Assembly (NCBI GenBank): GCA_965248435.1
Contig: OZ252100.1
Location: forward strand, 3,488,001-3,552,000
Length of the DNA: 64,000 bases
Direction of reading: 5' to 3'
From: Candidatus Latescibacterota bacterium
GTDB lineage: Bacteria > Latescibacterota > UBA2968 > GCA-2709665
The stretch's first letter is position 1; each line of letters starts with the position of its first letter. Position numbers and translations under genes: made by a program. Shown here piece after piece: positions 10,727-28,813 of this stretch. A model generated the notes under the pieces. That model saw only the letters and a program-made list of their open reading frames with translations, was not told the DNA's origin and searched no databases.

Positions 10727-10847
10727 CGTCTCTCCTCCCTGGTTACGATGGACGTAACATTCAGGTTTATCACAATGTTACATCGAAACATCGTCCAAAT
10801 CCTGGATACCTGAGGCGGGTGTAATATATGCGGACCAAAAAAAGGAG

Positions 10848-14017: not shown

Positions 14018-14824
14018 CTAACCGAGAAGGGAGAGCGCCCTCTGTGGAAGAACGTTCACCTGCGCCAGTAGAGCGATGTTGGCCTGGGCGAGGATGCGGG
14101 AACGTGCAAACGCGGTCGTCTCTCGAGCAACGTCGGCGTCGCGAATCGTGGACTCGGATGCCTGAAGACTCTCGATCGCGCTCTCGCTGGATCGGAGGCT
14201 GAACGACAGGCGGTTCTGAACGGCGCCGATGTCTCCGCGCTGAGTGGAGACTCTCGAGATCGCCTGGTCTACCTGGGAAATCGATTGTCGGCTGGCCTCC
14301 GGAGTGGCGACAGAGGCGCCGGACAGGTTGAGATCGGCAGTAGAAGAAGCCAGCGTGTCAGCGTCAACACTGATCTGATTGGCCTGCGTCGCGTCCGCTC
14401 CCACCTGAAAGGTGACTGGATTTGCGGTCGGTGATGAGGAAGCGCTCACCCGATCGATTTCAGCCGTCAGCTGCGAGAATTCAGTCTGCAGGGTGGAGCG
14501 GTTCTCTGTGGACAAGGTGGAAGATGAGGCCTGCACGGAAAGCTCTCGCAATCGGCCAAGGATTCCGCTGACCTCGTTGAGGGTCCCGCCGGCCTGCTGC
14601 AGGAAATTGGTCGCCTGCTCGACATTCCTGACGGCTTGCGTCAGTCCGCTAATCTGCGCCCTCTGACCCTCGCTGATACTTAGACCGGCAGGGTCGTCCG
14701 CGGCACTGTTGATGCGAAGCCCGGTCGCCAGCCGCTTGATCCTGTTTTCAAGCTTGCGGAGGTTGACGTTCAGGGAGCGACGGACGACGTTTGTTCCGAG
14801 GTTCGTGTTGACGCGCAGGGGCAT
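14018..14824 (-). CDS. fliC: Flagellin, minimal type (about 268 aa, D0/D1 only)
   Basis: MPLRVNTN, LATGLRINSAADDPAGLSISE, RLRELSVQAS, FQVGA, RGDIGAVQNRL, ESTIRDADVARE; RBS AGGAG. Confidence 0.9.
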   Translation of the reverse strand: MPLRVNTNLGTNVVRRSLNVNLRKLENRIKRLATGLRINSAADDPAGLSISEGQRAQISGLTQAVRNVEQATNFLQQAGGTLNEVSGILGRLRELSVQASSSTLSTENRSTLQTEFSQLTAEIDRVSASSSPTANPVTFQVGADATQANQISVDADTLASSTADLNLSGASVATPEASRQSISQVDQAISRVSTQRGDIGAVQNRLSFSLRSSESAIESLQASESTIRDADVARETTAFARSRILAQANIALLAQVNVLPQRALSLLG

Positions 14825-14961
14825 GGCTTGCTCCTGAGTACGAAGAAATTCGATCTTGACATCACCAAGATATTGAATCACGGAGAAAGCTGCAATTCAA
14901 TTTTGTGCTATCTCGCGCCGCCTGACGCAGGAACAAGCACTCGGTCGAGAGAGGGTGAGCT

Positions 14962-15853: not shown

Positions 15854-16951
15854 TCATCCCAAACGCTGCCGCAATATCTCTGCCGCTTCACACATCGACC
15901 TGAGCTTCAAGTAGGCTTCGTCCAGGTCCATCGGATTCTGAACCGAGGGGGAGAACCCGCAATCCGGGTGCAGGGTGATGCGCTCTGCATCCACGTGGCG
16001 CATCGCGCCCTCCACGCGCGCCACGACTTCCTCGGCCGTTTCAACGTGAGTGTCGCAGTGGTCGATACACCCGAGACCCAATCGTCGATTCTCGGGGAAT
16101 TGTGAGAGGGATTCCAGGCCCCCTGCATCCGGGGTCGCATACTCCATCGAGATTGTACCTACTCGAACGTTCTGAAGGGCCGGCATAATCAGTTCGTAGC
16201 CGCCCTTAGTGGCGTGCTTGTGGTCGAAGTGGGCGTGGCAGAGGTGCATTCCGGTCGCAATGCCTTCGATTCCGTCCACCGTCTGGTTGATCAGGTCCAC
16301 GCAGAGGTCCATTTCGTACTGCAGGTCGGTGACGTTCTCCCTTTCGCGAAAGTTCGGATCGACCATCGTACTGAGCCAGGGCTCGTCGAGTTGAATAGTG
16401 TCGGCTCCGATGTCGCGGATCGCCTCGATCTCCCGCCGCAAGATCGGCACGCAGTCGGCCATCAGCTTCTCGGGACTCGGATAAGCCGCCTTCGAGTGAT
16501 CAGGATGCCACATCCGCCGGCCGACGATGTAGGGCGCGGGCAGCGTCGCCTTGACCCTTCGCTGAGTCAGTTTCCGAGTGTAACGGACCTCCTCGGCCGC
16601 CAGAGGCTGGAAATACTCGATCGGTGCGACGACAGCCGGGTAGGACAACACCCCGTCGCTGGGGTTAAGGTCGGACTGAAAACCTCGCACACGTTCGGCA
16701 AAGATCTTGACGTAGCTCTCCCGGCGCCATTCGCCATCGGTGATCTCGTCCAGGCCGGCCCGTTCCTGAAGCCGAATCGCCGATTCGACCGCGCCGTCGA
16801 GCAGGCTGTCGACATCCTCCTCTGAAATCCGACCCTCCTTCCGATCCAGGATCACTTCGCGAATCCATTCTGGGCGAGGCAGGCTTCCGATTACGGTCGT
16901 GGGAAACAGCTTGTCTGCCAAGCCAGGCCTCCTTTCTTTCCGGCTCTTCAC
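15854..16951 (-). CDS. Cobalamin-independent methionine synthase II family protein (single-domain core MetE)
   Basis: TTVIGSLPRP, ITDGEWRR, IQLDEP, HLC, PDCGF Zn-ligand motifs. Confidence 0.85.
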   Translation of the reverse strand: MKSRKERRPGLADKLFPTTVIGSLPRPEWIREVILDRKEGRISEEDVDSLLDGAVESAIRLQERAGLDEITDGEWRRESYVKIFAERVRGFQSDLNPSDGVLSYPAVVAPIEYFQPLAAEEVRYTRKLTQRRVKATLPAPYIVGRRMWHPDHSKAAYPSPEKLMADCVPILRREIEAIRDIGADTIQLDEPWLSTMVDPNFRERENVTDLQYEMDLCVDLINQTVDGIEGIATGMHLCHAHFDHKHATKGGYELIMPALQNVRVGTISMEYATPDAGGLESLSQFPENRRLGLGCIDHCDTHVETAEEVVARVEGAMRHVDAERITLHPDCGFSPSVQNPMDLDEAYLKLRSMCEAAEILRQRLG

Positions 16952-16969
16952 CCCACCTCACAAAACATC

Positions 16970-17270
16970 ATGCCTCCGGCGGCCTACTTTTCTTGTCTCG
17001 CCACAAGAAAAGTAGGCAAAAGAAAGGCGCCCCTCAGACGCCGGGGGGGCTTGGGCCGCGGCACCTTACCTTCAGTGGAAAGCACCGACGCAGCAATAGT
17101 CCGGAACTCCTCCCGTCACCAGATGCCCGCTGTGGGACCCGCCCCCACCCCGCGAATTTCCATTCGCCCGCGCCGCCACCCCCGCACTTCACCCGGTCCC
17201 ACAGAGGGCCCCAACCCCTTGGGAGGAGGAACGCGCTTGGGTGCAGGGGAGTCGCACACCGCGGCCCTGG
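16970..17270. repeat. Highly structured intergenic element (REP/MITE-like or ncRNA)
   Basis: Perfect 15-bp hairpin 16982-17017 plus nested inverted repeats 17053-61/17259-67, 17107-14/17221-28, 17130-39/17195-204, 17152-57/17162-67. Confidence 0.65.
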
Positions 17271-17329
17271 TGCGAGTTAAGTGATATATTCCCAGAGTTT
17301 CAGTGCCGCCCGCGGGCTGGCGAGTAGAG

Positions 17330-18418
17330 CTATTTACTTCCAATCGCAGACGCTACTGCACTCCCGACGCTTTCTGTCGAGGCGCTTCCTCCGAGGTCGG
17401 CGGTGTGGTTCGACGGGTCTTCGAGTACCTGCCCGACCGTCGCGTCGATCGCCCGCGCAGCGGTCGCGGCATCCTGGTCATCGTGACGCGCTCCCAGCCA
17501 GGTGAGCATCATCCCGGCCGAGAGGATCTGGGCCAGTGGGTTTGCAATGCCCTGGCCGGCGATGTCCGGGCCCGTGCCGTGAGAGGGTTGAAAGACGCCG
17601 TATCGGTCTCCGACGTCGGCCGACGGGGCCATCCCCATCCCGCCGATCGTCGCAGCCGCGAGGTCAGATATGATGTCGCCAAACATGTTCTCCGCGACCA
17701 CAACGTCGTAGTAGTCTGGTTTTTTAACCTGGTAGACAGTAAAGGCGTCTACGTAGGCGTAGTCGCGTTCTGTATCGGGGTAGTTCTCGGCCACACCATC
17801 ATAGACCTTTCGGAAGAAGGCCATGCTTTTTAGGATGTTGGCTTTATCGACGCACGTGACACGGCGCTTTCGATCCTTGGGGGCACCCTGCCGCTGCCCG
17901 GCGATTTCGAAGGCATAGCGCACAATCCGTTCCGTACCGGTCCGCGTTATCACCAGGTTATCCACCGCTACGTCGTCGCCCACGCTGACGCCGGCGCCGC
18001 AGGAGGCGTAGAGGCCTTCGGTATTTTCGCGCATGATGACATAGTCGATGGGAGGATCGTCGGCAAGAAGGGGCGAGATGCCGGGAAACCTCTTGATCGG
18101 ACGAATTCCGGCATACAGGTCCAGGACGAATCGCAGGGTAATTTGAGGCGTGATCTCTGTGCCATCGGGAAAGCGGACATCTGGATCTCCCGCAGAGCCG
18201 AAAAGGATCGCATCCGATTTCCGGCAGGCCTTTAGCGTATCCTCCGGGAGGTCGCTTCCGGTCTCCGTGTAGCATTTTGCGCCGACCGGGTATTCGGTCA
18301 GGCTCAAGCTCAGGTTCGGAAAGGGCGACTTGAGGGCGTCGAGGACCTTGAGTGCCTCGGCCATGACTTCCGGCCCGACGCCGTCACCTGAGAGGACTGC
18401 GATGTTGTAGCTTGCCAT
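17330..18418 (-). CDS. Isocitrate/isopropylmalate/tartrate dehydrogenase family protein
   Basis: LSGDGVGPEV, RENTEGLY, VDKANIL, ENMFGDIISD, PSHGTGPDIAGQGIANP. Confidence 0.9.
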   Translation of the reverse strand: MASYNIAVLSGDGVGPEVMAEALKVLDALKSPFPNLSLSLTEYPVGAKCYTETGSDLPEDTLKACRKSDAILFGSAGDPDVRFPDGTEITPQITLRFVLDLYAGIRPIKRFPGISPLLADDPPIDYVIMRENTEGLYASCGAGVSVGDDVAVDNLVITRTGTERIVRYAFEIAGQRQGAPKDRKRRVTCVDKANILKSMAFFRKVYDGVAENYPDTERDYAYVDAFTVYQVKKPDYYDVVVAENMFGDIISDLAAATIGGMGMAPSADVGDRYGVFQPSHGTGPDIAGQGIANPLAQILSAGMMLTWLGARHDDQDAATAARAIDATVGQVLEDPSNHTADLGGSASTESVGSAVASAIGSK

Positions 18419-18584
18419 GAGTAACACCTAGTGGACAACTTCGAAGTGCGAGGCGAAGGAAGATCATGCCTGCTTGTCTGTTTGACTCCGGTCTCAGAGC
18501 TTCTCAGAATCTGGGCACCTTGTCAGTTTAGGGCTGTGTTGAGAAAAATGTTTTAAGGCATGAGCACGATTCCTCGATAGTTAA

Positions 18585-18655
18585 CTACAACCTAGACGCT
18601 GGAAAATCAGCGGCAGCGCGAATTACCTGCCGCTGCGTCGCTAATTGGGTTGCAT
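18585..18655 (-). mobile_element. Degenerate attC-like site
   Basis: Minus strand ATGCAAC...CAGCGGCAG-loop-CTGCCGCTGATTTTCCAGCGTCTAG-GTTGTAG; 71 bp, AAC/GTT ends, central hairpin. Confidence 0.5.
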
Positions 18656-18717
18656 GAGGAGACTTTCCTGATCTCCTTTTTTATTGCTCTGGTCCGAGAA
18701 GAGCCATCGGCGAGTTG

Positions 18718-20181
18718 CTAACCGACTTCGTCCCTTAAAGTCTCAACCCTCTCAAAGAAGTGGGGGATCGACCAAAGAAGCTCTGCGTGTTTGTAGTCTG
18801 ACACCATCTTACCGAAAGCCTGCTCCGCCACGTAGGAGCTGAGGCGCTCTACGGTATCCCTGTGGTCCGCAGGCCACAGGCGAAGAAGAACCTCACCAAT
18901 ATGGGCCGAAGCCCCAAGATCTGGACTGCCGTGAATAGTGAGCGGATAGCCACTAATGTGAGATTCGAGATCAACATGGAGGCCACGTAGACCGGTGTGC
19001 ACACTCGACAGAGTCTTCTGAGTCTGGTCACTGCTACTAGCAATCAGCATGTCGCCGCAGGCGTCGAGAACCCACCAACTGTAGTATCCCGACATATGCC
19101 ATTGCTTCTCATGGCCGAACAACCGAGCCTCACCCCGTTCCGACTCGTAGGCGAGAGCCATTTCGCAGAGATTCTCTTCGAGAGTTGATTGAATCTGATC
19201 AAGACGTGAATTGGTCATCCATGAAGTTCTCAGGTCAGGACGAGATCGCACGAGGCCGATCAAATGGAGTCGCTCAGCATGGGTAGGGACACGGTGGTCC
19301 CCCACGGATAAGTCCTGCAGACAAAAGTTAATCGCTTGCTTGATCGGTGCTGGGCGCTGATGTGAGAGTTGGAGAAGCGCTTTTGCAAATGTTGCTGAGT
19401 GACGGACGTCTACGCGAATCGTTTCACCCGTTGACGTCATCTGTATAAGGCCAGCCCCTTTGCCGTCGAAGTGCCTGAGAAGGTAACCCCTTGCAAGCGT
19501 CAGTCGTCGGTCGATACGATCCAAGTAATCAGGATATGCCGAACTTCGCAGAAAGAGACGCTTCAGGCTGCATAACCCTCTAATCATCCAGTGCGTGACT
19601 GAAACGCTGTCGACTTGAGATACCGAATCGGGTACGTGGTCAGGAAACGAAAGGGGAAGGTAGTTCTGGGAATACGATTTTGACCAGCCTCCGTATCGAT
19701 GTGAGGCCGGCTCCTCGACGAACTGGTCTGCCTCGATCGCCGATAGAATGGGTTCCCAGTCGCCAAGCTCGATACCGCACGACGACTCAAGGGGTTGAAG
19801 CTTCCCGGCGATGCGATCGGCTATCGACTCAGGGGTCCCTACCCGACCGTCAATATACAGCAAACCAGACAGGATCCTCGGAACACAATTGTCTTCCAGT
19901 AGAATTGGGAAAAGTCTGAATGATGGGTCAAGACCCCTTCGGGCGAACGCCGCGCTCAGTTCGGCCTGGACCCACCACGAGTCGAGAGATTTATGCGATA
20001 GCAATACACAATAACCCTGTGATCGATCGATTGCACGAGATATCTCGGTCGTGAGCACTTGGCCAGGGTCCAGGTGATCAATATCTCGCCATAGGAGAAT
20101 CCCCTTCGCCGCAAGTGTCGAAGCAAAGGCATCGGCCCAGACGCCATCCTCATGGGAGTAGCTGAGAAAGAGTGTTGTCAT
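18718..20181 (-). CDS. TIR domain protein fused to a helical C-terminal domain (possibly alpha/alpha toroid, prenyltransferase-like)
   Basis: LFLSYSHED, LWRD..LDPG..ISRAIDRS..VLLSHKSLDSWWVQAEL (catalytic Glu), FPILLE..P..L..LLYID. Confidence 0.85.
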   Translation of the reverse strand: MTTLFLSYSHEDGVWADAFASTLAAKGILLWRDIDHLDPGQVLTTEISRAIDRSQGYCVLLSHKSLDSWWVQAELSAAFARRGLDPSFRLFPILLEDNCVPRILSGLLYIDGRVGTPESIADRIAGKLQPLESSCGIELGDWEPILSAIEADQFVEEPASHRYGGWSKSYSQNYLPLSFPDHVPDSVSQVDSVSVTHWMIRGLCSLKRLFLRSSAYPDYLDRIDRRLTLARGYLLRHFDGKGAGLIQMTSTGETIRVDVRHSATFAKALLQLSHQRPAPIKQAINFCLQDLSVGDHRVPTHAERLHLIGLVRSRPDLRTSWMTNSRLDQIQSTLEENLCEMALAYESERGEARLFGHEKQWHMSGYYSWWVLDACGDMLIASSSDQTQKTLSSVHTGLRGLHVDLESHISGYPLTIHGSPDLGASAHIGEVLLRLWPADHRDTVERLSSYVAEQAFGKMVSDYKHAELLWSIPHFFERVETLRDEVG

Positions 20182-20194
20182 TTTATCTTTGTCC

Positions 20195-20255
20195 AGCTAG
20201 CACTTTGCAGATCTGTCGCGGTGCGAGGCGCCGTCCTTGCATCGGCTTGTTCGTG
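20195..20255 (-). mobile_element. Degenerate attC-like site (61 bp)
   Basis: CACGAAC-AAGCC-GATGCAAG...ACAGATC-TGCAAAGT-GCTAGCT; R''/L''/L'/R' layout, 13 nt before the TIR ATG. Confidence 0.6.
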
Positions 20256-20445
20256 CCGCCGCCCACTCGTCTTCGACACCTTCGGCGGATGAAGCAGTCA
20301 TCGTTTTTCTTCTTCTATCTCGCTTCTCTTCAGCTTGGGCGCAGTGGGTTGCCATTCTCTCAAATGCTGAACCACGTCTCCGTAGAATCCGACGACTACT
20401 CCGATTTCTGCCGGTTCCGAAAGGTCCTCGATGTCGTTTCACTCC

Positions 20446-21390
20446 TTATCCGCCGTCTTGGTCTGCGTGAACGAAGGCATATGAACCGATACCGAGTACA
20501 ACTAGGGTTACTCCTAACCCCGCGGTCAATGACGGCGCATTGCCACCAAACAGGCCCCACTCTATTATGAGTGCGAAAGGCACTTCTGCGGCCTGCGTGG
20601 CATCTACTGCGGCGATTGCCATCGGACTCGTCGTGCTATGCCTTGCGTACAGGAAAATGCTCGTCGCAACGATTCCCGTTGATATCGCCACATATGCGGT
20701 ACTAGCGAGCTGTTCTGCCGTTGGGGCCGGAGGCTGTGCAAGAAGACCGATTACCATCAGAACCGGTATCGCGCCAGCTGTCATCATCCACACTCTGCAG
20801 AATGTATTACCTATGGGCGGCTGAACGATGTGCGGAACAATTGCGTGTCCACCACTTTTCGCGAGTCCGCATAGTGTGTTTCCCAAAGGGAAGCACGTCG
20901 CTGCGAGGAGCACCGGTCATACGCCATACCCTATTTCCAGAGAGAATCGTCCGAACTGTGAAGCATTTACCAAGAGCACCCCGACAACTGCTATCCCGGC
21001 ATAGAGCACGCCTCTGCTAGGTACACGTCGGCCGAACACGCGAAGCACAAGAGGAGTCGCGAGGATCGTGCATTGCCAAGTTGTCGCCACGACCCATCCA
21101 GGAGCGAAGCTAGCCGCGAAACAGAGGGCAGAATAGAAGCATCCGAATCCAATGCCCCCAGCAACAAGCCACAACCAGCGATATTGAACAAGGCACACAC
21201 CGGATTCCCACAAGCTCCGCCGTCCGTACCTGAATGCGATCAAAGGTGTGAGAAGTATGAACACGTACGCATACCTAAGCGCAGCGGTCCAAAACCAATG
21301 CCCACCTTCTACACTCATCCATCTATTGAGAACGAAGGTGCTAGAGAAAAAGAAGGCAGCAGCTACACCCAAAGACACCAGTCGAATCAC
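20446..21390 (-). pseudogene. YjlA-like multidrug-resistance efflux transporter (DMT superfamily) with in-frame TGA at 20917-20919
   Basis: FFSSTFVLNR..GGHWFWTAALRY, GFGCFY..FAA..APGWVVATTWQ.TILATP; same frame continues *PVLLAATCFPLGN..ATSIFLYAR..AAVDATQAAEVPFAL. Confidence 0.8.
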
Positions 21391-21444
21391 AGATACCGTC
21401 CTTCCCCTTCCTTCGCCATCAGAACAAACAACCTTATGGTCATA

Positions 21445-22926
21445 TCACAGATCGTATCGGCCGACATTGAACGCCATTGCCCGCTCCCGCTCACCACGCG
21501 TCGCGTGCGGGTCTTCGGGAAGCACGTACTGGGTGACACACTCCTTGAGTTCACACATGTTGAGGAAATGGTGGGTTACCAGGTGGCGAAACTCAGCATC
21601 AGGGTGGGTCACGGGCGCCGGCAACGCGGTGAAATCCAGCAACTGAAAGGTACGTGGAGTATCTAGAAAGTAACGGATGGTGGAACGATTTGCTGGGTCA
21701 AACCAACCGTCGTTTCCCGGTACAATCCCCTTAGCCACGTGCGGGCGGGGGAGAGCACCGTGCTCATCAGCCATCCTTCGTCCGAATTCAGCCGCACGTT
21801 CAAGGCTATCAGCGTCATCCACTCCGACGTGACCGAAAACCATGAGCGTTTCCGCGGTGATGCCGTAGCACTCCCGTGCGACTCGAATGGCCTCCGCGGG
21901 TGAATACGAGCCATGAGGCTTTCGGATGGCCTTCCAGACCCGTGAGACCGCCCCATCCACCCCAAAGCCAATGCGGCATAGACCGGCGCGTGCTAGATCA
22001 GCGATTAGATCGGGCTCACGCATATGTGCACTGAGGAAGGAATTAACGTTCGAGAGCCCTCTCATCCGAAGCTTGAACCCTTGTTGTTCTTGAAGGACGG
22101 ACAGTATACTCTGACAGACACCACGAACCTCGGACGGCGATTGAAAGAGGTCAAGGTTTGTTAGATAGAGTTGTAGGCTTGAAATCCCCAGCTTCTTCGA
22201 TCGCTCAATTAGATATGTGAGGTCCTCCTGGATACGTTGGAGCTCTCTGTAGCGCTCTTGTACTTTTCGAGCAGGTCCGCCCGAAACACTGTCTGGTCGA
22301 GTACGATCAGCGGCGCAAAAGCTGCAACTGTAGCGACAACCCTGCGAAAGGTAGAATGCAAACTCCTGCGATAGGTAGAGCCGCATGGTGGCATCTGATA
22401 TTTGCTCATAGGCACAAAGCAGAGAGACGCTCTCCGGTGTCGGCACTGCGCCGGGCCCCAATCCCAATGCTCCGCTGAGAGCACACGGCGAGTTTCCATT
22501 GACGACGCTGCCGCCGAAGAGGTCAGCCATCTGATGTTCGGTGAAGCCGGAGATAATCTGGCCACCGAGGAGAATCGTGGCCTCTGGCCGCTGCTCCCGG
22601 ACCCGGCTAGCGAGGCGAATCGTGGGCTCCACGTAAGGCGCGCCGACCAAGTTTATGCCAACACACGGTTCGAACTCTCGCGCCTGGTCAATGTTCTCAT
22701 CCACCAACTCTACCTCAAATCCAGCAGCCATCAGGCGTGCTTGGACAGACAGGATCGACGTTGGCATGTACACGTGACCCAGGGGGTGATCGACCGGATC
22801 CGGCGCATAGACATGGCGTGGCTGGATCAGTTGAACGGAGTCACGGTTTCTTGAGGGGATCATCAGGTCCTCGGGTGCGAGCATTGGCACAGTGCCCGTC
22901 GCGCCCTGACGGCTCGCTGCAGGCAT
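21445..22926 (-). CDS. B12-binding domain radical SAM protein (start may be 22863)
   Basis: N-terminal PTSILSV..L..AGFEVELVD..VGIN..ILLGG (B12 domain); SQGCRYSCSFC CxxxCxxC; AGLCRIGFGVD. Confidence 0.85.
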   Translation of the reverse strand: MPAASRQGATGTVPMLAPEDLMIPSRNRDSVQLIQPRHVYAPDPVDHPLGHVYMPTSILSVQARLMAAGFEVELVDENIDQAREFEPCVGINLVGAPYVEPTIRLASRVREQRPEATILLGGQIISGFTEHQMADLFGGSVVNGNSPCALSGALGLGPGAVPTPESVSLLCAYEQISDATMRLYLSQEFAFYLSQGCRYSCSFCAADRTRPDSVSGGPARKVQERYRELQRIQEDLTYLIERSKKLGISSLQLYLTNLDLFQSPSEVRGVCQSILSVLQEQQGFKLRMRGLSNVNSFLSAHMREPDLIADLARAGLCRIGFGVDGAVSRVWKAIRKPHGSYSPAEAIRVARECYGITAETLMVFGHVGVDDADSLERAAEFGRRMADEHGALPRPHVAKGIVPGNDGWFDPANRSTIRYFLDTPRTFQLLDFTALPAPVTHPDAEFRHLVTHHFLNMCELKECVTQYVLPEDPHATRGERERAMAFNVGRYDL

Positions 22927-22969
22927 CGTAGCGGTACGAGTAACACTGCTTCCTCTTCGCCATTCCTTC

Positions 22970-22995
22970 CACGGACAACTGATTGCTTGTTGGAC
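22970..22995 (-). mobile_element. Internally deleted attC-like remnant
   Basis: GTCCAAC (perfect RYYYAAC) AAGC 4 nt after the stop of the upstream gene, then GTTGTCC. Confidence 0.4.
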
Positions 22996-22999
22996 ATTC

Positions 23000-24163
23000 T
23001 CAATAGCCCGAAACCTCCTTTAACCGGCCCTCCTCTTGCGTGTAAACATGGAACCTCATCGCCGTGTTGTTTCCGTCAGGACCGAATTCATAATTCCCTG
23101 CGGCGCCACCGTGAATAATGATATCCTTTTTATCCGCCTGGACATGCTCTCCTATGGATCTTCGCGAGTTTCCATTGACGCCACTTATGATGATCTCAGC
23201 CAGCTTATAGGCATCGGCCCCAATAGGCTCGTAAGTTGCCTTCTTCTGCCCTTCCGAAATGGTGACAGCTGACAGGAAGTATGATTCGTTTCGCAGCGTC
23301 GCCGATCTCTCGATAAGTTCTTCGACTGTACAACCATCCGTGAAGACGACCGGCACGGTGATATCGAAAGTAGCTAACTCGTCGATGAGAAGCAGGCCGT
23401 TATTCGAAACTCCAACAAAGATCAGGATCTCAGGAGATTGAGCATGGTCGCGAAGCCGTTCGAAGTCATCAACCAGTCTACTCGCATCTCCATAGTTCTT
23501 CTTGTATATAATTTGACCGCCATTCTTCCTAATCTTGGCTGAGATCTTCTTCGCGAGGTCCTCAGAGTAGGCCCGGTTTTCCTCGTCAACCAGGATTGCG
23601 ACTCTCTGGTTCGTTGTCCTCTTGGCAATGAAACTCTTGATTTGAGTTGCTTGGTCTTCGTTGTCTGGAATCATCCTAAGCATGGCATTGTACCCTGCGG
23701 ATTGAGCGATTGCTGTGAGTTGGGTCGCAGTTGCAATTGGCAAGATGAATGCGGGTCTGCTAGAGGACCTGACTATTTCGCCAAGTGTAACGGTGGTGAG
23801 CTCGCTGTTCGAGTTCCCGATGATCATCACACAATTCTCATCGTTAACGAGTTCCATCGCGACCCGCTCCGCTTCCTCGACTGAGTAATGATCATCTCTA
23901 TAGGATATTTTTACGACTTCTCCTCCCTTTGTTTTCAAGTGATTGCTGCTTCCGAAGCCAGTCAGGAACTCAGTCGGTATGGTGAACGTTTCGTCCGACT
24001 TTGACATCACCACGGCAATGTATTTTTCCTGGTGAGAAGCATCTATGACCACATCCTTCCCAAGGTCGAGGAGGGTGGAGATCACCCATGTTGCGCCGGT
24101 AAGAGCAAAAAAGCCTAAGATTAAGTAAATGATGTGTTTTGGCTTTGGTCTTCTCACGGTCAT
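23000..24163 (-). CDS. Membrane-anchored type-1 periplasmic binding protein (LivK/ABC branched-chain-like), with no partner transporter genes
   Basis: N-terminal TM; YRDD..EAERVAMELV..IIGNSNS, ILPIATA, LRMIPDNEDQA, YSEDLA, GAAGNYEFGPDG; RBS GGAGG. Confidence 0.75.
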   Translation of the reverse strand: MTVRRPKPKHIIYLILGFFALTGATWVISTLLDLGKDVVIDASHQEKYIAVVMSKSDETFTIPTEFLTGFGSSNHLKTKGGEVVKISYRDDHYSVEEAERVAMELVNDENCVMIIGNSNSELTTVTLGEIVRSSSRPAFILPIATATQLTAIAQSAGYNAMLRMIPDNEDQATQIKSFIAKRTTNQRVAILVDEENRAYSEDLAKKISAKIRKNGGQIIYKKNYGDASRLVDDFERLRDHAQSPEILIFVGVSNNGLLLIDELATFDITVPVVFTDGCTVEELIERSATLRNESYFLSAVTISEGQKKATYEPIGADAYKLAEIIISGVNGNSRRSIGEHVQADKKDIIIHGGAAGNYEFGPDGNNTAMRFHVYTQEEGRLKEVSGY

Positions 24164-24274
24164 GTCAGTTCCTCCCTCATTGATTGCGTAGAGTTGGCAT
24201 TGTCCCGAACGGTGTTCAGAGGTGAGTCTAATGAGGTCCCGTACGGTCTTAAGGTGTAATAACGTCTCCGTTCG

Positions 24275-24421
24275 GACTAACATGAATTGTGCAGGTCAGC
24301 ATGAAGCCCAAAACATAGCTGATTCTCTGCAAGATATCACCCCACGGTTTCATCCAGTTTGTGAGGGCAACTCCATTTATCCAATAGACTCCGGAAAGAG
24401 CAGACACTCCGCTGGTTAGTA
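24275..24421 (-). mobile_element. Degenerate attC-like site (147 bp)
   Basis: TACTAAC contains the stop TAA of ORF 24416..24763 and is complementary to GTTAGTC at the other end. Confidence 0.5.
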
Positions 24422-24763
24422 AGAAGCCACTTCTCGCCGAGACGTTGATGACAGCAGCTCGTAGAGTCGCTTGAGACCGGATACCACCTCTGCCCATCCG
24501 TCTGTCCATCGGTCGTCGAGTGGCTCACTTGCTTGGCAGATGGAGTGAGTCCGGTCAAGCAGCACATTGGCAACCTTGCAAAGTTCCTGAAGTTGCGCTG
24601 GCGCGGATGCAGGCAGCTCATAGTGGCCAGGAAACACAGGTCCGTGGAATCCGGCCTCCCGTGCAGCATATCGCGTACATGCGAGGACCGCTCGAAGTAA
24701 GCGGGCGCGCGCCGTATATGCAAGCTCGGCAGTTCCTGCCAACTCAAGTGCGTGCTTGATCAC
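24416..24763 (-). CDS. Hypothetical helical protein or C-terminal gene fragment
   Basis: 115-aa ORF, GTGA overlap with upstream gene, stop lies inside an R''-like box. Confidence 0.45.
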   Translation of the reverse strand: MIKHALELAGTAELAYTARARLLRAVLACTRYAAREAGFHGPVFPGHYELPASAPAQLQELCKVANVLLDRTHSICQASEPLDDRWTDGWAEVVSGLKRLYELLSSTSRREVASY

Positions 24764-25254
24764 TCGGCGAGATTTGCCTCGCGGGCAGCCACTTCAACGA
24801 GACGATAAGCCTTTGCCGGCGCAGCGTGTCCCAGCTTTGCAGCCTCCCGCGCGAGGTCATGTGCGAGGGCCTCTCGCAGATTCGGCTCCTGCGGTATGCT
24901 GTTCTCCAACTCGTGGAAGTCAACGTAGCAACCTGTGAAGCGAGCGTAACGAAAGTCACACGCACTGATGGAAGTGCCCGGGAACTCGCAATCGATGAAC
25001 CTGCACGCCGAGAATACCGATGACCGCAGCTGGGTCTTCCGGAAGTAACAGCCGAGGAATGCACAGTTGAGGAACCGCGCTTGTTGGAGCGTTACATCCT
25101 TGAAACTGATATTCGCAAACGTACAATGCTCATAGGTAGCGTTCTGGATCAGCCTGCCATCTAGAAGCTCGCTACCATACAGTTTCTTCTTGCCACGATA
25201 GGGCTCGGCAATCTCAGACGGAGTCCGTCCGACGAAGTATAGACCAGCTGTCAT
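24760..25254 (-). CDS. Pentapeptide repeat protein, probably C-terminally truncated
   Basis: ATYEH CTFAN ISFKD VTLQQ ARFLN CAFLG CYFRK TQLRS SVFSA CRFID CEFPG TSISA CDFRY ARFTG. Confidence 0.8.
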   Translation of the reverse strand: MTAGLYFVGRTPSEIAEPYRGKKKLYGSELLDGRLIQNATYEHCTFANISFKDVTLQQARFLNCAFLGCYFRKTQLRSSVFSACRFIDCEFPGTSISACDFRYARFTGCYVDFHELENSIPQEPNLREALAHDLAREAAKLGHAAPAKAYRLVEVAAREANLAE

Positions 25255-25266
25255 GGCACCCTCTCC

Positions 25267-25432
25267 CTACAACTAGACACCTTACGAAGCCGCGCACGCT
25301 ACCCGCAGACCCTGGATGAGTCTGCAGCGATCCATTGAGTCGGAACATCGAAGTACATCCCCACATCGAGACGGACAGCCAGCTATACGTTCCTTTTCGA
25401 AAACGCGGTTGGTCTGCAACGCCTTTTTAGCC
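25267..25432 (-). mobile_element. Degenerate attC-like site
   Basis: GGCTAAA-AAGGC-GTTGCAGACCAACCGCG left arm overlapping the gene stop; right end GTCTAGTTGTAG nearly identical to the end of the 18585 site. Confidence 0.5.
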
Positions 25433-25822
25433 GGCCGCCATCAGGTTAAAGCTAGCGATTTCAGTGTTTAAGATGAGCACAGCCGGAGGTGCATCCAGCT
25501 CAGCCTCCTGGACATGGGTTGCCCGCACGGCGCTGGAAAAATTCACCTCGATAATTTTGCAGCCAAACCCTTCTTCTTTAGCGACCTCGAACTGCTCGTA
25601 CGCGAAAACGACCCCCGGATCGGCCGTTGCAGGCGGTGAAACTAAATGGTTCTGAGTCTTATCTAGTTCCGCATCAATTGGAGCACCTAAGAACCGACCA
25701 GATTGGACAATAGCAGCAGCGTGATTAGTGTAGTGATACGCCTTTCCGGCCCCGAGTAGCTCGACGTCGGTGAAGGTTGAAATCGCCGTCTGAATGAATT
25801 CTGCAAGCTCTTGCGATGTCAT
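25427..25822 (-). CDS. Small protein with ADP-ribosyltransferase (Tox-ART-HYD1-like) pattern
   Basis: AYHYT...AIVQSGRF...PGVVFA pattern; 131 aa from MTSQE. Confidence 0.5.
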   Translation of the reverse strand: MTSQELAEFIQTAISTFTDVELLGAGKAYHYTNHAAAIVQSGRFLGAPIDAELDKTQNHLVSPPATADPGVVFAYEQFEVAKEEGFGCKIIEVNFSSAVRATHVQEAELDAPPAVLILNTEIASFNLMAAG

Positions 25823-25888
25823 TCTCTTCTCCAACACCCCGCTTAAGTTTTAGCTGCCTGGATAGTTGTACGATCCTGTGAGGTAGTT

Positions 25889-25918
25889 ATTATACGATTT
25901 GAGATAGATGCTTATCAA
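25889..25918 (-). promoter_or_regulatory. Sigma70-type promoter at the head of the island
   Basis: TTGATA-N18-TATAAT on minus strand, about 65 nt upstream of the ATG at 25822. Confidence 0.6.
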
Positions 25919-26199
25919 GTTCTCGGACATTTAAATTCGTATCACTATGTTGAATATGTCGCCATGCGCCAAACCAAGTCCATGACGATATGCTCGGGGC
26001 GACTCTTAGAGTGGCACGATTCATTTCTTCTACGGCTTAGTGGTAGGCTATTTGCTCAACATATGATTCCAGTTGTTTTGTCCCTTTTACGTCAGACTGT
26101 TACTTCAGGAATTGAGAACAATTAGCGACTTCCTCAGTGTGAACATCCCTTTGAACATCCGAACTCCTAATTCGCATCCACTCAAGACTCTGCCCATCG

Positions 26200-26538
26200 C
26201 TATGTGCGATCCTCGTTGATTTTTCCAGTGGCTCGGTACCTGGCCAGTCTCCTGCGCACGACTCGACGTAGCTTTCGGTCTGGATCGTTGCGAAGGCCTT
26301 CCATTACGGATAGGACCTCCGACTCCCGAGCTTTCGGAGAACCGTCGATCAGGGTGTGGAACGCGATTCTTCGCACGCTCAGATCGGGGTCAGATGTCAA
26401 TTCGAAAATCCGGTCCCAAACCCTCGGGTCGTCCATCTTGATCTCGCAAGGGCAAAGGTCTCTGGCCGCTTGCTTACGAACTCTGTGGTCTGGATCGTGA
26501 GTATCACTCAGGAGATCATCTATCGTTCGCGTTTCCAC
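26200..26538 (-). CDS. HEAT repeat protein
   Basis: Three DPD..VRR/VRK/LRR helical repeats; DLCPC motif. Confidence 0.7.
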   Translation of the reverse strand: METRTIDDLLSDTHDPDHRVRKQAARDLCPCEIKMDDPRVWDRIFELTSDPDLSVRRIAFHTLIDGSPKARESEVLSVMEGLRNDPDRKLRRVVRRRLARYRATGKINEDRT

Positions 26539-26541
26539 GGT

Positions 26542-26847
26542 TCAGTACTCCGCAGGCGTGTATATGTTCAGTGTCTCGAGGGGTCGATCGCTGGTGTTCA
26601 CGATTTCGTGGGTTTCGCCCGCCTCTACGAGGAGGAGCGTTCCGGATTGGAGATCGGTCTGTTTCTCTCCCACGATGGCCCTGCCCTCACCCGAGATGAC
26701 ATAGAGCCACTGATCACTTTGGCGGTGCTTATTGTGTGGTCCTCCCGTTGCCTCCCTGGCTTCGAGGACCATGGTTGCGGCCTGCCCGCGGTCTGTCGTG
26801 GCCAGGATCCGAAAGCCGCTCTCTGGTTCGATTTGAAGACGCTTCAT
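26542..26847 (-). CDS. Cupin domain protein
   Basis: HNKHRQSDQWLYVISGEG..L..G..GETHEIVN..LNIYTP; RBS AAGGAG. Confidence 0.85.
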   Translation of the reverse strand: MKRLQIEPESGFRILATTDRGQAATMVLEAREATGGPHNKHRQSDQWLYVISGEGRAIVGEKQTDLQSGTLLLVEAGETHEIVNTSDRPLETLNIYTPAEY

Positions 26848-26896
26848 CAAAGTGCTCCTTCGGCCGCCATTTAGGGTCGATGGTTGACATGGAAAC

Positions 26897-27039
26897 AAAT
26901 CCCCCCTGCCCCCCTTTTCCGAAAGGGGGGAGATTGCTCTTTCTGAAAAGAGTACCCATCCAGGAATAGATTCTTCCCCCTTTGCAAAAGGCCTGTCCCG
27001 AGCGAGCTTGCGAGTCGAGGGAGGGATTGAGGGGGATTT
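26897..27039. repeat. REP/MITE-like palindromic element with a nested second palindrome
   Basis: Terminal IR AAATCCCCC / GGGGGATTT; internal CCCCCCTTTTCCGAAAGGGGGG hairpin; insert CCTGTCCCGAGCGAGCTTGCGAGTCGAGGGA at 26992-27022. Confidence 0.7.
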
Positions 27040-27048
27040 CAGAATGCA

Positions 27049-28632
27049 TCACAGATTTCTTTCGCCGGTGACCTCCGCCTCACAGGCCTCGTATTTCCGA
27101 ATCAACTTGGCATAGATCTCCCGAGCATCGGGAGCCGGGTTGATGGCCGACCCGGAAACAGGATCTGCAAACCCCGACACGACCTCGTCCCAGGGCATTT
27201 CGTTTCCGGATTCAAGGAGGTAGCCGTGGGCCGCCCTCAACGCGGCGCCAAGGGCCGCGCTGTTTGTCGTTTCGAAGCGGTATACGGGGCATCCCTGGAC
27301 GTCGGCCATGACCTGCAGGATGTCTCGATTTCCCGAAGCGCCGCCCGTTGCATAAATCTTCGCGGTGCTGACGCCCATCCATTTCGCGTGGATGCGCATG
27401 GAGATCATTTGCGCCTCAACGACCGCCCTGCAGTTGCCTGAAATGTTGTCTTCCTCGAGCCCAATTCTTCTCACGCCCGGCTCGAGGACGTTCGGTACGA
27501 TCTCGGGTTCAAAATAGGGTAGCATGACCTTGCCGTCATTTCCAGGAGGCGCCGTAGACAACGCCCTGGAAAATCCGTCCCAGTCCAACCCAAAGGAATC
27601 TTTGACCTTTTCTCGCGCGAGGGATCCGTTCTTGAAGCAGATGAGCGTCATGTAGTCGCCTGTGGGCGAGACGAAGACGTGTCCCTCACCCCTCGGGTCA
27701 AAGCGGCAGTCCTTCATCGTTCCGAAATAGGTGTCGCTTGTTCCGAGGCTGATGGCGACCATGCCCTCCCGAATCAGACCCAGCCCGACCACGCTGTTTG
27801 GATTGTCGCCCGACCAGACCAGCGCCTTCGCGTTTGCGTTCAACTCGTATCTTTCAGCAAAGTAGGGACTGACGGAGCCGATGCACGTCCAGGATTCGGC
27901 CAGCGAAGGCAGACGGCCTTCCAGGCCGGGGGCCGTGGCCTCCAGCGCGCCGGCGTGCCACCGCCGTGTTCGGATATCCATCAGGTTCATACCTGCGCCA
28001 TCGCCGTGGTCGATCGGAGCGATCCTTCCTGCCATAAGGGAAGCCATGAACGAACTGACGAGCGCGATATGGTTTGTATCCTCGTAGGCAGCCGGCTCGG
28101 TCTTGAAGAACTTTCTGATCTGGGGTCCGGTGAAGCGCTCAAAGGTCGTCGACCCTGTGGCCTCTGCGGTCGCCCCAAGGCCGCCCAGCCCCTCGCATAT
28201 CTCACTGCATTCCCGGGTCGTGGATGAATCCATCCAAACCGGTGAGGTCTGCCGGGAAAAAACGCCCTCCAGGTTTTCCTTAAGGCTCTTCGAGGGATCG
28301 AGGCCCTCGAGGGCCTTTGCCGCCTCGTCGTTCAAGTAGACGGAACCGTGCTGCTGACCCGACCCGGATACGGCCAGGACCTCGCTCAGCCTCACTCCCG
28401 CGTCGCTCATCTTCTCGAACAGGACATCCAGCGCCTCCACCCATATCAGGGGTGGAGTGTGGACGACCCTGGGGTCCTGATGAGGGAGCACGCCATTCTG
28501 TGTCCCGTAGGAGGGAAACGTTTCGTCGAACCCGACCGAATCTTCGTAGACGATTTCTCGGCTCGTGAGATCTATAACGACCGCGGTGAGGCTCTGCGTG
28601 CTCGAGTCGAGCCCCAGGAACAACCTGCTCAT
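27049..28632 (-). CDS. Xylulokinase (FGGY family, eukaryote-like subtype)
   Basis: LGLDSSTQS, SGSGQQHGSVY, PVWMDSST, ERFTGPQIRK, GDNPNS, ISLGTSDT, NGSLARE, TGGASGN. Confidence 0.85.
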   Translation of the reverse strand: MSRLFLGLDSSTQSLTAVVIDLTSREIVYEDSVGFDETFPSYGTQNGVLPHQDPRVVHTPPLIWVEALDVLFEKMSDAGVRLSEVLAVSGSGQQHGSVYLNDEAAKALEGLDPSKSLKENLEGVFSRQTSPVWMDSSTTRECSEICEGLGGLGATAEATGSTTFERFTGPQIRKFFKTEPAAYEDTNHIALVSSFMASLMAGRIAPIDHGDGAGMNLMDIRTRRWHAGALEATAPGLEGRLPSLAESWTCIGSVSPYFAERYELNANAKALVWSGDNPNSVVGLGLIREGMVAISLGTSDTYFGTMKDCRFDPRGEGHVFVSPTGDYMTLICFKNGSLAREKVKDSFGLDWDGFSRALSTAPPGNDGKVMLPYFEPEIVPNVLEPGVRRIGLEEDNISGNCRAVVEAQMISMRIHAKWMGVSTAKIYATGGASGNRDILQVMADVQGCPVYRFETTNSAALGAALRAAHGYLLESGNEMPWDEVVSGFADPVSGSAINPAPDAREIYAKLIRKYEACEAEVTGERNL

Positions 28633-28813
28633 TTCAATATTCTCCTGCAAAGGAAGGCAGATTTCGGATCAGAGTCAGATCCTGATGGCTTCGGAGGCCG
28701 AACCGGGCGACAAAATTGAAAGTTAGAGCCGGTGGACTGCGATGTCAATTGCTGATCCGGGAGGATCGGCCCGATATCGGTCGCGCCTGGACCCCCATTA
28801 TGGGAAAAAGCTC

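Follow-up and report, generated by a model that had tools for sequence, protein, structure and literature searches.

With regard to integron cassettes, an island in the genome of a Candidatus Latescibacterota bacterium raises the question of how much decay an array can undergo before its origin becomes unreadable. The window, i.e., the whole analysed stretch of 64 kb on contig OZ252100.1, contains this island, flanked by a leuB-like dehydrogenase gene on one side and by cupin/xylulokinase genes on the other; the six gene units of the island are referred to as G1 to G6. An initial annotation had taken it for a fossilising library of conflict-type cassettes, with five attC-like spacers and without an integrase. 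Comparison with related loci indicates that the main feature of the island, not mentioned in that annotation, is the pentapeptide-repeat gene G2 as the stump of a three-gene Hailong-like operon apparently cut by a 1.1-kb deletion. The island as a whole is probably a fossil integron cassette array that has lost, or has been separated from, its integrase and is eroding by point mutation and deletion.

The truncated pentapeptide-repeat gene and its relatives

The island and the relic within it comprise the following features (positions within the window):
18530-26100, minus strand: foreign island, delimited by G+C content and codon use
24760-25254, minus strand: G2, N-terminal 161-164 aa of a HalA-like pentapeptide-repeat/two-helix membrane protein, membrane half missing
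24752-24775, minus strand: putative deletion junction, from alignment with relatives, about 1.1 kb lost
24416-24763, minus strand: remnant of gene C, the third gene of the operon, from tblastn against the related loci; the full gene encodes about 120 aa, a predicted four-helix bundle

The G2 product is 70-73% identical to proteins of 297-298 aa. The match ends at residues 161-164 and the remainder is absent from the window; two hydrophobic helices are present in the relatives and none in the window piece. A genome scan with a HalA-like query, which did not return the genome of the window itself, gave 16 loci, 13 of them with a full-length gene, and in all of these 13 the HalA-like gene (A) is followed by a HalB-like gene (B) and an overlapping gene for about 120 aa (gene C). 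In a plasmid relative a HalB-like nucleotidyltransferase gene likewise comes after. The stretch behind G2 matched gene C in tblastn at E<1e-3 in 12 of the 16 loci and with an E value of 0.028 in a 13th, while a protein search confined to proteins of at least 203 aa gave no match for the remnant. Assignment of 24416-24763 to the C-terminus of HalB was rejected, since the corresponding sequence is a separate third gene in the relatives. The positions joined at the window junction lie 1,104-1,107 nt apart in six of six relatives measured, and the junction leaves two frames one base apart. As judged from these alignments, a single deletion of about 1.1 kb appears to have removed the channel half of A, i.e., the rest of G2, the whole of B and the start of C (about ten codons). 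In a tree of the N-terminal 170 residues G2 groups with three proteins (99/99), not with the homolog from locus L002. An interpretation of G2 as a Qnr-type resistance protein was rejected as well, based on the membrane half and the nucleotidyltransferase neighbour of its relatives and on a score of 44 vs. 240.

Hailong is an anti-phage system, with Tyr-primed oligo-dA synthesis and an oligo-dA-gated channel as its activities. It has been described as two genes, HalA and HalB (Tan et al., 2025, via the reviews PMC13434031 and PMC13276650), HalA being toxic without HalB according to the same two reviews. If this toxicity extends to the present branch, B could not be lost alone, and a deletion of the kind found here would be one that survives. 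It would disarm toxin and guard together and may thus represent a viable way to shed a guard system, taking pore and enzyme at once. The relatives resemble Hailong in that a pentapeptide-repeat protein with a two-helix, channel-like C-terminus adjoins a HalB-related nucleotidyltransferase. Repeats and both hydrophobic helices, i.e., the HalA architecture, occur in the full-length A relatives and not in the window copy, and the adjacent HalB-type gene, present in 13 of 13 full-length loci, is deleted in the window. HalA and HalB are the defence-family models that score best on the operon proteins, and HalB itself is the best PDB match of the HalB-like profile (E 4e-9). The solved HalA structure 9nyi matches the A relatives over the repeats only (E 0.008), and their C-terminal half aligns weakly to the M1-pore-M2 segment of a KirBac potassium channel (E 0.2). 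On the other hand, scores stay far below the NCBIfam cut-offs (HalA 26-47 bits vs. 250, HalB 43-53 bits vs. 190), all 13 full-length loci have a third, overlapping gene instead of a two-gene operon, the operon is cassette-borne in some hosts, and the window copy is destroyed.

Gene C forms at least 183 clusters at 50% identity and has no sequence match in Pfam, PADLOC or the PDB. The predicted model of one relative is a four-helix bundle (pLDDT 93.9), for which a fold search returned generic four-helix bundles (best Z 13.3, rmsd 2.6, 107 residues aligned). HEPN proteins were among the weak rows of that search (E>0.2) and lack a sequence match, such that a HEPN assignment, although possible, was rejected. 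In three proteins (P0066, P0182, P0139) the gene C sequence is joined to further sequence, in two cases a HalB-like N-terminus and in one a different domain; these may be fusions or frameshift artefacts. A third Hailong gene was not found in the literature searched, though the primary Hailong paper and its supplements, which lay outside that search, may describe one; the same literature gave no match for HalC together with Hailong and no link between Hailong and integrons by title or abstract start.

A cassette context for the operon is found outside the window. In Candidatus Binatia (L002) an IntI (TIGR02249, 386 bits) and an attI-like site precede the three genes, a canonical attC and then more cassettes follow, and the operon is the first cassette of this complete integron. 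The attC site after it has a covariance E value of 4e-8, a fold z of -5.1 and an R'' box that is the exact complement of the upstream core. The position directly after gene C was scanned with a matrix trained without Hailong-like loci and with 40 shuffles; an attC-like site was present in five of the 13 loci (L002, L003, L004, L009, L010) and in none of the shuffles. This site is intact in L002, damaged in its core in L003, L004 and L010, and reduced to the left half in L009. Such damage, with AAC reading AGC or AGT or with the right half lost, was noted at L003:8883-8948, L004, L010, L008:11918-11977 and L009; in L008 the L box pairs in 7 of 7 positions, yet the site is not significant. Damage to the attC behind the operon in most of the relatives that have such a site suggests repeated fixation of the cassette. 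The expectation of the initial annotation that homologs of the island genes should lie next to attC sites is therefore borne out for the G2-gene C operon by the L002 integron.

The operon also occurs in defence settings that are not integrons (L001, L005, L011, L014). Among these, the HalA-like and HalB-like pair on a Rhizobium plasmid (L001:3968-5866) adjoins an ABC three-component system and carries a third overlapping ORF unlike gene C. A second case of inactivation is seen at L015:2959-4513, where the HalA-like gene is interrupted by transposase-like ORFs. In Nitrospira-type loci a conserved attI-like simple site stands in mid-array (L003:9171, L004:12182 and 13894, L010:12180, L007:8308 on the minus strand); no IntI was present in the examined stretch of these loci.

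Spacers of the island and the attC models

Five spacers had been put forward as attC-like. They comprise, together with two further elements:
25829-25854, minus strand: candidate right half of an attC, 6 nt upstream of the G1 start; weak, position-anchored matrix score 5.0, nominal p = 0.03 for one of eight starts tested
25409-25432, minus strand: left arm of site 1, R''-spacer-L'' of an attC across the stop codon of G1, AAC core reading AAA
25267-25278, minus strand: site 1 end motif GTCTAGTTGTAG, a copy of the shared end, 12 nt upstream of the G2 start
24275-24421, minus strand: site 2, R''-like TACTAAC overlapping the stop codon of gene C, with a GTTAG end; no L-box pairing, fold z +0.5, matched by 42 of 60 shuffles
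22970-22995, minus strand: site 3, lone R''-like GTCCAAC 5 nt past the G3 stop codon; p = 0.48, no partner arm
20195-20255, minus strand: site 4, attC-like layout of 61 nt, its end 13 nt upstream of the G6 start, GCT in place of the GTT core
18578-18655, minus strand: site 5, 9-bp hairpin in a degenerate attC-like layout, then GTCTAGGTTGTAG and GTTAACT; R1 6.7 bits, E 2.7
20298-20438, minus strand: 46-codon open frame ending ahead of site 4, without family or structure match; possibly the 3' end of a deleted gene, unconfirmed

The one significant signal is the left arm of site 1. It ranks first of 127,940 positions, scoring 16.6 vs. 13.5 for the next position and a median of 13.1 for held-out true sites, and it was equalled by none of 200 shuffles. 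Its offset of -5 from the stop codon is the commonest one (7 of 21 annotated cassettes), and the result persists when Hailong-like loci are excluded from training. Site 1, with its altered core, is the only one at which an R'' box (RYYYAAC), a spacer of 5 nt and L'' are arranged at or immediately behind a stop codon. The end motif GTCTAGTTGTAG of the same spacer received no support as a right half of attC (p = 0.55). The half-site matrices supported this left arm alone, the other spacers being equalled by 18-42 of 60 shuffles. Two of the 47 training sites were dropped after the window-wide ranking for want of an AAC/GTT register, and 45 were used in the shuffle and position-anchored tests.

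Whole sites were searched for with covariance models built for this analysis, which are not those of IntegronFinder. Training sites came from 13 loci including environmental, phage-borne and class 1 integrons; models R1, R2 and R3 were derived from 22, 18 and 15 sites, R2 and R3 from imperfect MAFFT alignments. The training structure of R1 covaries (matched by none of 500 shuffles), although R1 is the less general model and found only one of six true sites in L021. In a control over 80 kb, R3 recovered 10 of 13 held-out attC sites at E<10, six of these at E<1. With the search cut to 7.8 kb, R1 gave sites 5, 3 and 4 scores of 6.7, 6.0 and 4.9 bits (E 2.7-8.5), and R3 restricted to the island gave site 3 a score of 8.7 bits (E 1.3), none of which is significant; 3 of the 11 island-restricted R1 matches fell in spacers (P = 0.08). 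Among the loci gathered, a Gemmatirosa plasmid (NZ_CP007129.1, L018:19900-40268, unannotated in its record) encodes an IntI and carries over 30 homogeneous attC sites, all oriented alike, and the phage records Virus Rctr41k and Shewanella phage M16-3 (L021:4680-10101, L023:6261-12831) hold an IntI with attC arrays.

A strict scan for AAC/GTT hairpins recovered none of the five sites, none forms the bottom-strand attC hairpin (L'/L'' and R'/R'' pairing, AAC/GTT cores), and none has kept both cores together with paired L boxes. In the folding check suggested by the initial annotation, the bottom strand folded better than shuffles at site 5 (z -2.3 and -2.2; 3 and 5 of 200 shuffles) and no better at the other four (z +0.3 to +1.0). 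The register of site 5 is not cleanly canonical, and with the ATTTT that follows it the hairpin may alternatively be a terminator. GTTAACT of site 5 fits an attI-like simple site (CTAR-N5/6-GTTR), a pattern with four matches in the window. The layout of site 4, described before as complete, proved to lack the GTT core and to pair in only 4 of 7 positions of the L box. Its left arm ranks 145 of 127,940 and the whole site is equalled by 27 of 60 shuffles, with 4.9 bits in R1 and a fold z of +0.3. Site 2 lies where the relatives have an attC; the window sequence after TACTAAC does not score, and the interior is an open frame of at least 51 codons. Sites 4 and 5 have the length of attC sites and are located at gene boundaries. 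The claim of five attC-like spacers thus stands in so far as the boxes are present at the coordinates given and the left half of site 1 is significant, whereas sites 2-5 do not rise above controls.

The shared end noted earlier, GTCTAG(G)TTGTAG, is indeed present at 25267-25278 and 18585-18597, twice in the window, and was found in none of 100 shuffles, the pattern having been picked post hoc. The two copies differ in spacing, the site 1 copy is without GTT, and the five sites have no further sequence in common; a repeat finder detected no repeat family across the island spacers. Of 35 pairings of spacer ends with seven attI-like regions, 3 passed the filter, none of them from site 1 or 5. Sites 1 and 5 gave only chance matches in blastn against plasmids, and the G4-G5 spacer holds no attC-like signal (score -10.6), these two genes looking like one unit.

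Open frames of 46-51 codons at 24252-24404 and 20298-20438, both on the minus strand, have their stop codons inside spacers and no family match, and are perhaps the 3' ends of deleted cassettes. Past site 5, on the minus strand at 18554-18577, a ribosome-binding-like GAGGA is followed by ATG and directly by a stop codon, possibly the start of a lost cassette.

Origin of the island

G+C content is 53.4% in the island vs. 57.8% elsewhere, a modest drop that nevertheless makes it the lowest 7.57-kb stretch of the window, in agreement with the A/T-richness first described. On a score of host codon use all eight gene pieces of the island reach at most 0.015, and 38 host genes are all higher (minimum 0.032). 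The eight ORFs of at least 100 aa retained in 18530-26100 all lie on the minus strand, as had been remarked, yet so do the flanking host genes (15854-18427 and 26200-28650), so that strand uniformity is not distinctive and gives no evidence. Two features concern the upstream end:
25889-25918, minus strand: predicted sigma-70-like promoter TTGATA-N18-TATAAT ahead of the first gene, 11 of 12 consensus positions
26200-26538, minus strand: HEAT-repeat gene (PF13646), codon-use score -0.002, possibly the first island gene

The promoter at the head of the array was confirmed at 25918-25889 as the best of five promoter-like sites, shuffles giving 5.5 expected. The cupin gene upstream of the HEAT-repeat gene is host-like in codon use (0.128). 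A 9-nt repeat near both ends of the island (26022, 18572) was discarded as being at chance level by estimate. As stated before, no intI is present: seven IntI proteins yielded neither gene nor remnant in the whole window (tblastn best E 0.69, profile best E 1.3). A scan of the island and of 38 further genes of the window revealed no transposase or recombinase, and Rfam at gathering scores and ARAGORN gave no match in the window. Two lesions, the deletion of about 1.1 kb and a nonsense codon, break two of the six units.

Clusters of attC sites lacking integrases (CALIN) require two or more attC sites that can be detected less than 4 kb apart, and 95% of them have no intI or pseudogene nearby (10.1101/030866, Cury et al., 2016). 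The island resembles them in its tandem foreign genes on one strand, in the absence of an intI or pseudogene nearby and in the attC-type sequence on a stop codon. It differs in that R1, R2 and R3 detected no whole site and only one half-site is significant; it resembles an aged CALIN, fails the CALIN test as run, and is at best a stage beyond CALIN. Of the proposed fossilising library, the foreign, decaying block without integrase and the cassette ancestry of a part thus remain, and the five recognisable attC sites do not.

On the reading as a fossil array, which we consider probable, cassettes would have been gathered earlier by an IntI, and the array would then have lost its integrase or moved away from the IntI. 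Sites would have decayed to the point where both cores plus a paired L box survived in none of them, fixing the genes in place. G3 to G6 would share this array origin, and the four sites other than site 1 would be attC relics decayed past detection. The cassettes would no longer be excisable, since L-box pairing and both cores (AAC and GTT) do not coincide at any site. The promoter ahead of G1 may still drive intact genes, and costly units may have been shed through deletions or nonsense mutations. Relatives show decay of the same kind, the attC being damaged in four of the five loci that carry one behind gene C, and integron erosion has been described in Xanthomonas (10.1101/2025.06.18.660453).

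Several results weigh against this reading. R1, R2 and R3, run over the whole window, recovered none of the five sites at E<10, so that the lack of covariance-model support, which the initial annotation had itself named as counter-evidence, is what these models returned. As a group, gene ends in the island did not outscore 47 host gene ends (p 0.62 for left and 0.28 for right halves in a rank test), and G3 (1.2 kb) and G4-G5 (2.5 kb) are large, operon-like units. Plasmid searches gave no match for G1, G3 and G4, three distant ones for G5 and three through TIR alone for G6. Among the relatives, 8 of 13 loci lack a significant attC behind gene C, IntI occurs in 1 of 16 loci only (L002), and L003, L004 and L010 are near copies, reducing the positives to about three independent cases.

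The main rival, rather unlikely in our estimate, is a variable island of the ordinary defence type, assembled by other routes, that received one or two former cassettes (G1 and the Hailong-like operon), e.g., through insertion by IntI at attG, with sites 2-5 being chance boxes, a terminator and gene remnants. It agrees with the single significant half-site, with the possible terminator at site 5, with the mostly open frame of site 2 and with the non-integron defence settings of the operon elsewhere. Insertion of cassettes by IntI outside att sites has been reported (10.1101/2022.09.11.507474), and such single cassettes at attG offer a route to cassettes away from intI, although the island would need several adjacent units. 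It is at odds with the lack of any transposase or recombinase in the island or the 38 other genes scanned, with the 12-nt end common to two spacers, and with sites 4 and 5, attC-like in length, box order and place, the more so as partial decay is also found in relatives.

That the sites are still alive, being lineage-specific or attI-derived (GTCTAG-N5/6-GTT ends) and recombined by an IntI elsewhere on the 5.66-Mb replicon, appears improbable. The shared GTCTAG(G)TTGTAG end would fit, as would the end of site 5, which agrees with the attI simple-site spacing of L003, L004, L007, L018, L019 and the class 1 attI1; models do miss divergent true sites, as R1 did in L021, and delta-attI cassettes, a route to attI-like ends inside arrays, function in class 1 integrons (PMC12901181). 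Yet the motif occurs only twice in the window, with different spacing and once without GTT, the sites share nothing else, and two of six units are broken. These breaks could themselves be assembly or base-calling errors, with the operon intact in the organism, which we regard as very improbable. The junction frames lie one base apart, and the G1 protein is found on a 5.66-Mb contig, probably from a long-read assembly. A clean loss of 1.1 kb and an in-frame nonsense codon are, however, atypical of indel errors, the long flanking genes are unbroken, and damaged copies exist elsewhere, e.g., in L015.

Integrase-less, eroding cassette arrays are already known, and the island alone is ordinary in this respect. 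It shows the extent to which an array can decay with its origin still readable from relatives and a single half-site, and this is relevant to the number of fossil arrays overlooked by annotation tools. More interesting than the fossil array itself is the three-gene, cassette-borne Hailong-like branch to which it points, lying below family cut-offs and with a third gene that is uncharacterised; the Candidatus Binatia integron, in which the operon is intact as the first cassette, offers a ready test case. Tentatively, a three-gene guard of channel, oligo-dA synthase and conserved four-helix third subunit might spread across phyla as an integron cassette, be addictive, become fixed upon attC decay and be shed only by joint deletion of pore and synthase. 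Arrays of this type could then represent a final stage of integrons that has gone unnoticed, being invisible to attC models and traceable only via half-sites and homolog context.

Remaining cargo and neighbouring sequences

The other gene units of the island are:
25427-25822, minus strand: G1, 131 aa, intact, ADP-ribosyltransferase-like fold (predicted model and fold search)
23000-24163, minus strand: G3, membrane-anchored periplasmic-binding protein (type 1), intact; PF13458 (E 1e-14), N-terminal helix
21445-22926, minus strand: G4, B12-binding radical SAM gene, intact, start codon uncertain; PF04055, PF02310
20446-21390, minus strand: G5, exporter gene of the EamA type (PF13536), interrupted by an in-frame TGA at 20917-20919
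18718-20181, minus strand: G6, TIR domain (PF13676, E 7.5e-21) and about 350 aa of probable alpha/alpha toroid, intact

With regard to G1, which has 14 relatives besides itself, no match was obtained in Pfam, NCBIfam or PADLOC, and no immunity gene was seen alongside. Its model (pLDDT 90.6) finds ADP-ribosyltransferase (ART) folds in the top rows of the fold search, the best Z being only 6.3 (rmsd 3.9, 115 residues aligned), and the nearest Atlas clusters are Arr/PARP-like (0.91-0.92). H30-Y31-T32 are invariant and Q105-E106 conserved in the family, and we take an ART-fold protein as a lead from the predicted structure. The two pieces of G5 cover profile positions 1-118 and 128-261. PADLOC matches G6 through the TIR domain alone, and the Atlas lead for this protein (0.88) is below 0.9. 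The TIR domain of G6 carries a Glu at the position presumably expected for the catalytic residue.

Conflict-type cargo, proposed for the island at large, accounts for three of the six units, i.e., the ART-fold gene, the Hailong-like relic and the TIR gene; the other three encode the periplasmic-binding protein, the B12 radical SAM enzyme and the broken exporter. Integron cassettes are reported to carry anti-phage systems (10.1101/2024.07.02.601686, 10.1101/2024.07.02.601719), and ART-fold, TIR and guard-type modules fit such cargo, whereas the operon cassette, with three genes in 2 kb, is not a streamlined single gene. The name Hailong does not occur in the available part of the text of 10.1101/2024.07.02.601686.

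Outside the island, an A/T-rich inverted repeat between divergent genes (10752-10783), matched by R3 on either strand, resembles a binding site for a regulator. A G+C-rich intergenic stretch with short repeats and no family match lies between the leuB-like and methionine-synthase genes (16970-17330), and a palindromic stretch of C/G runs at about 26900-27040 is similar to it. The host housekeeping context includes a large flagellar gene cluster (32791-61002) and a short flagellin of 287 aa (14018-14881).

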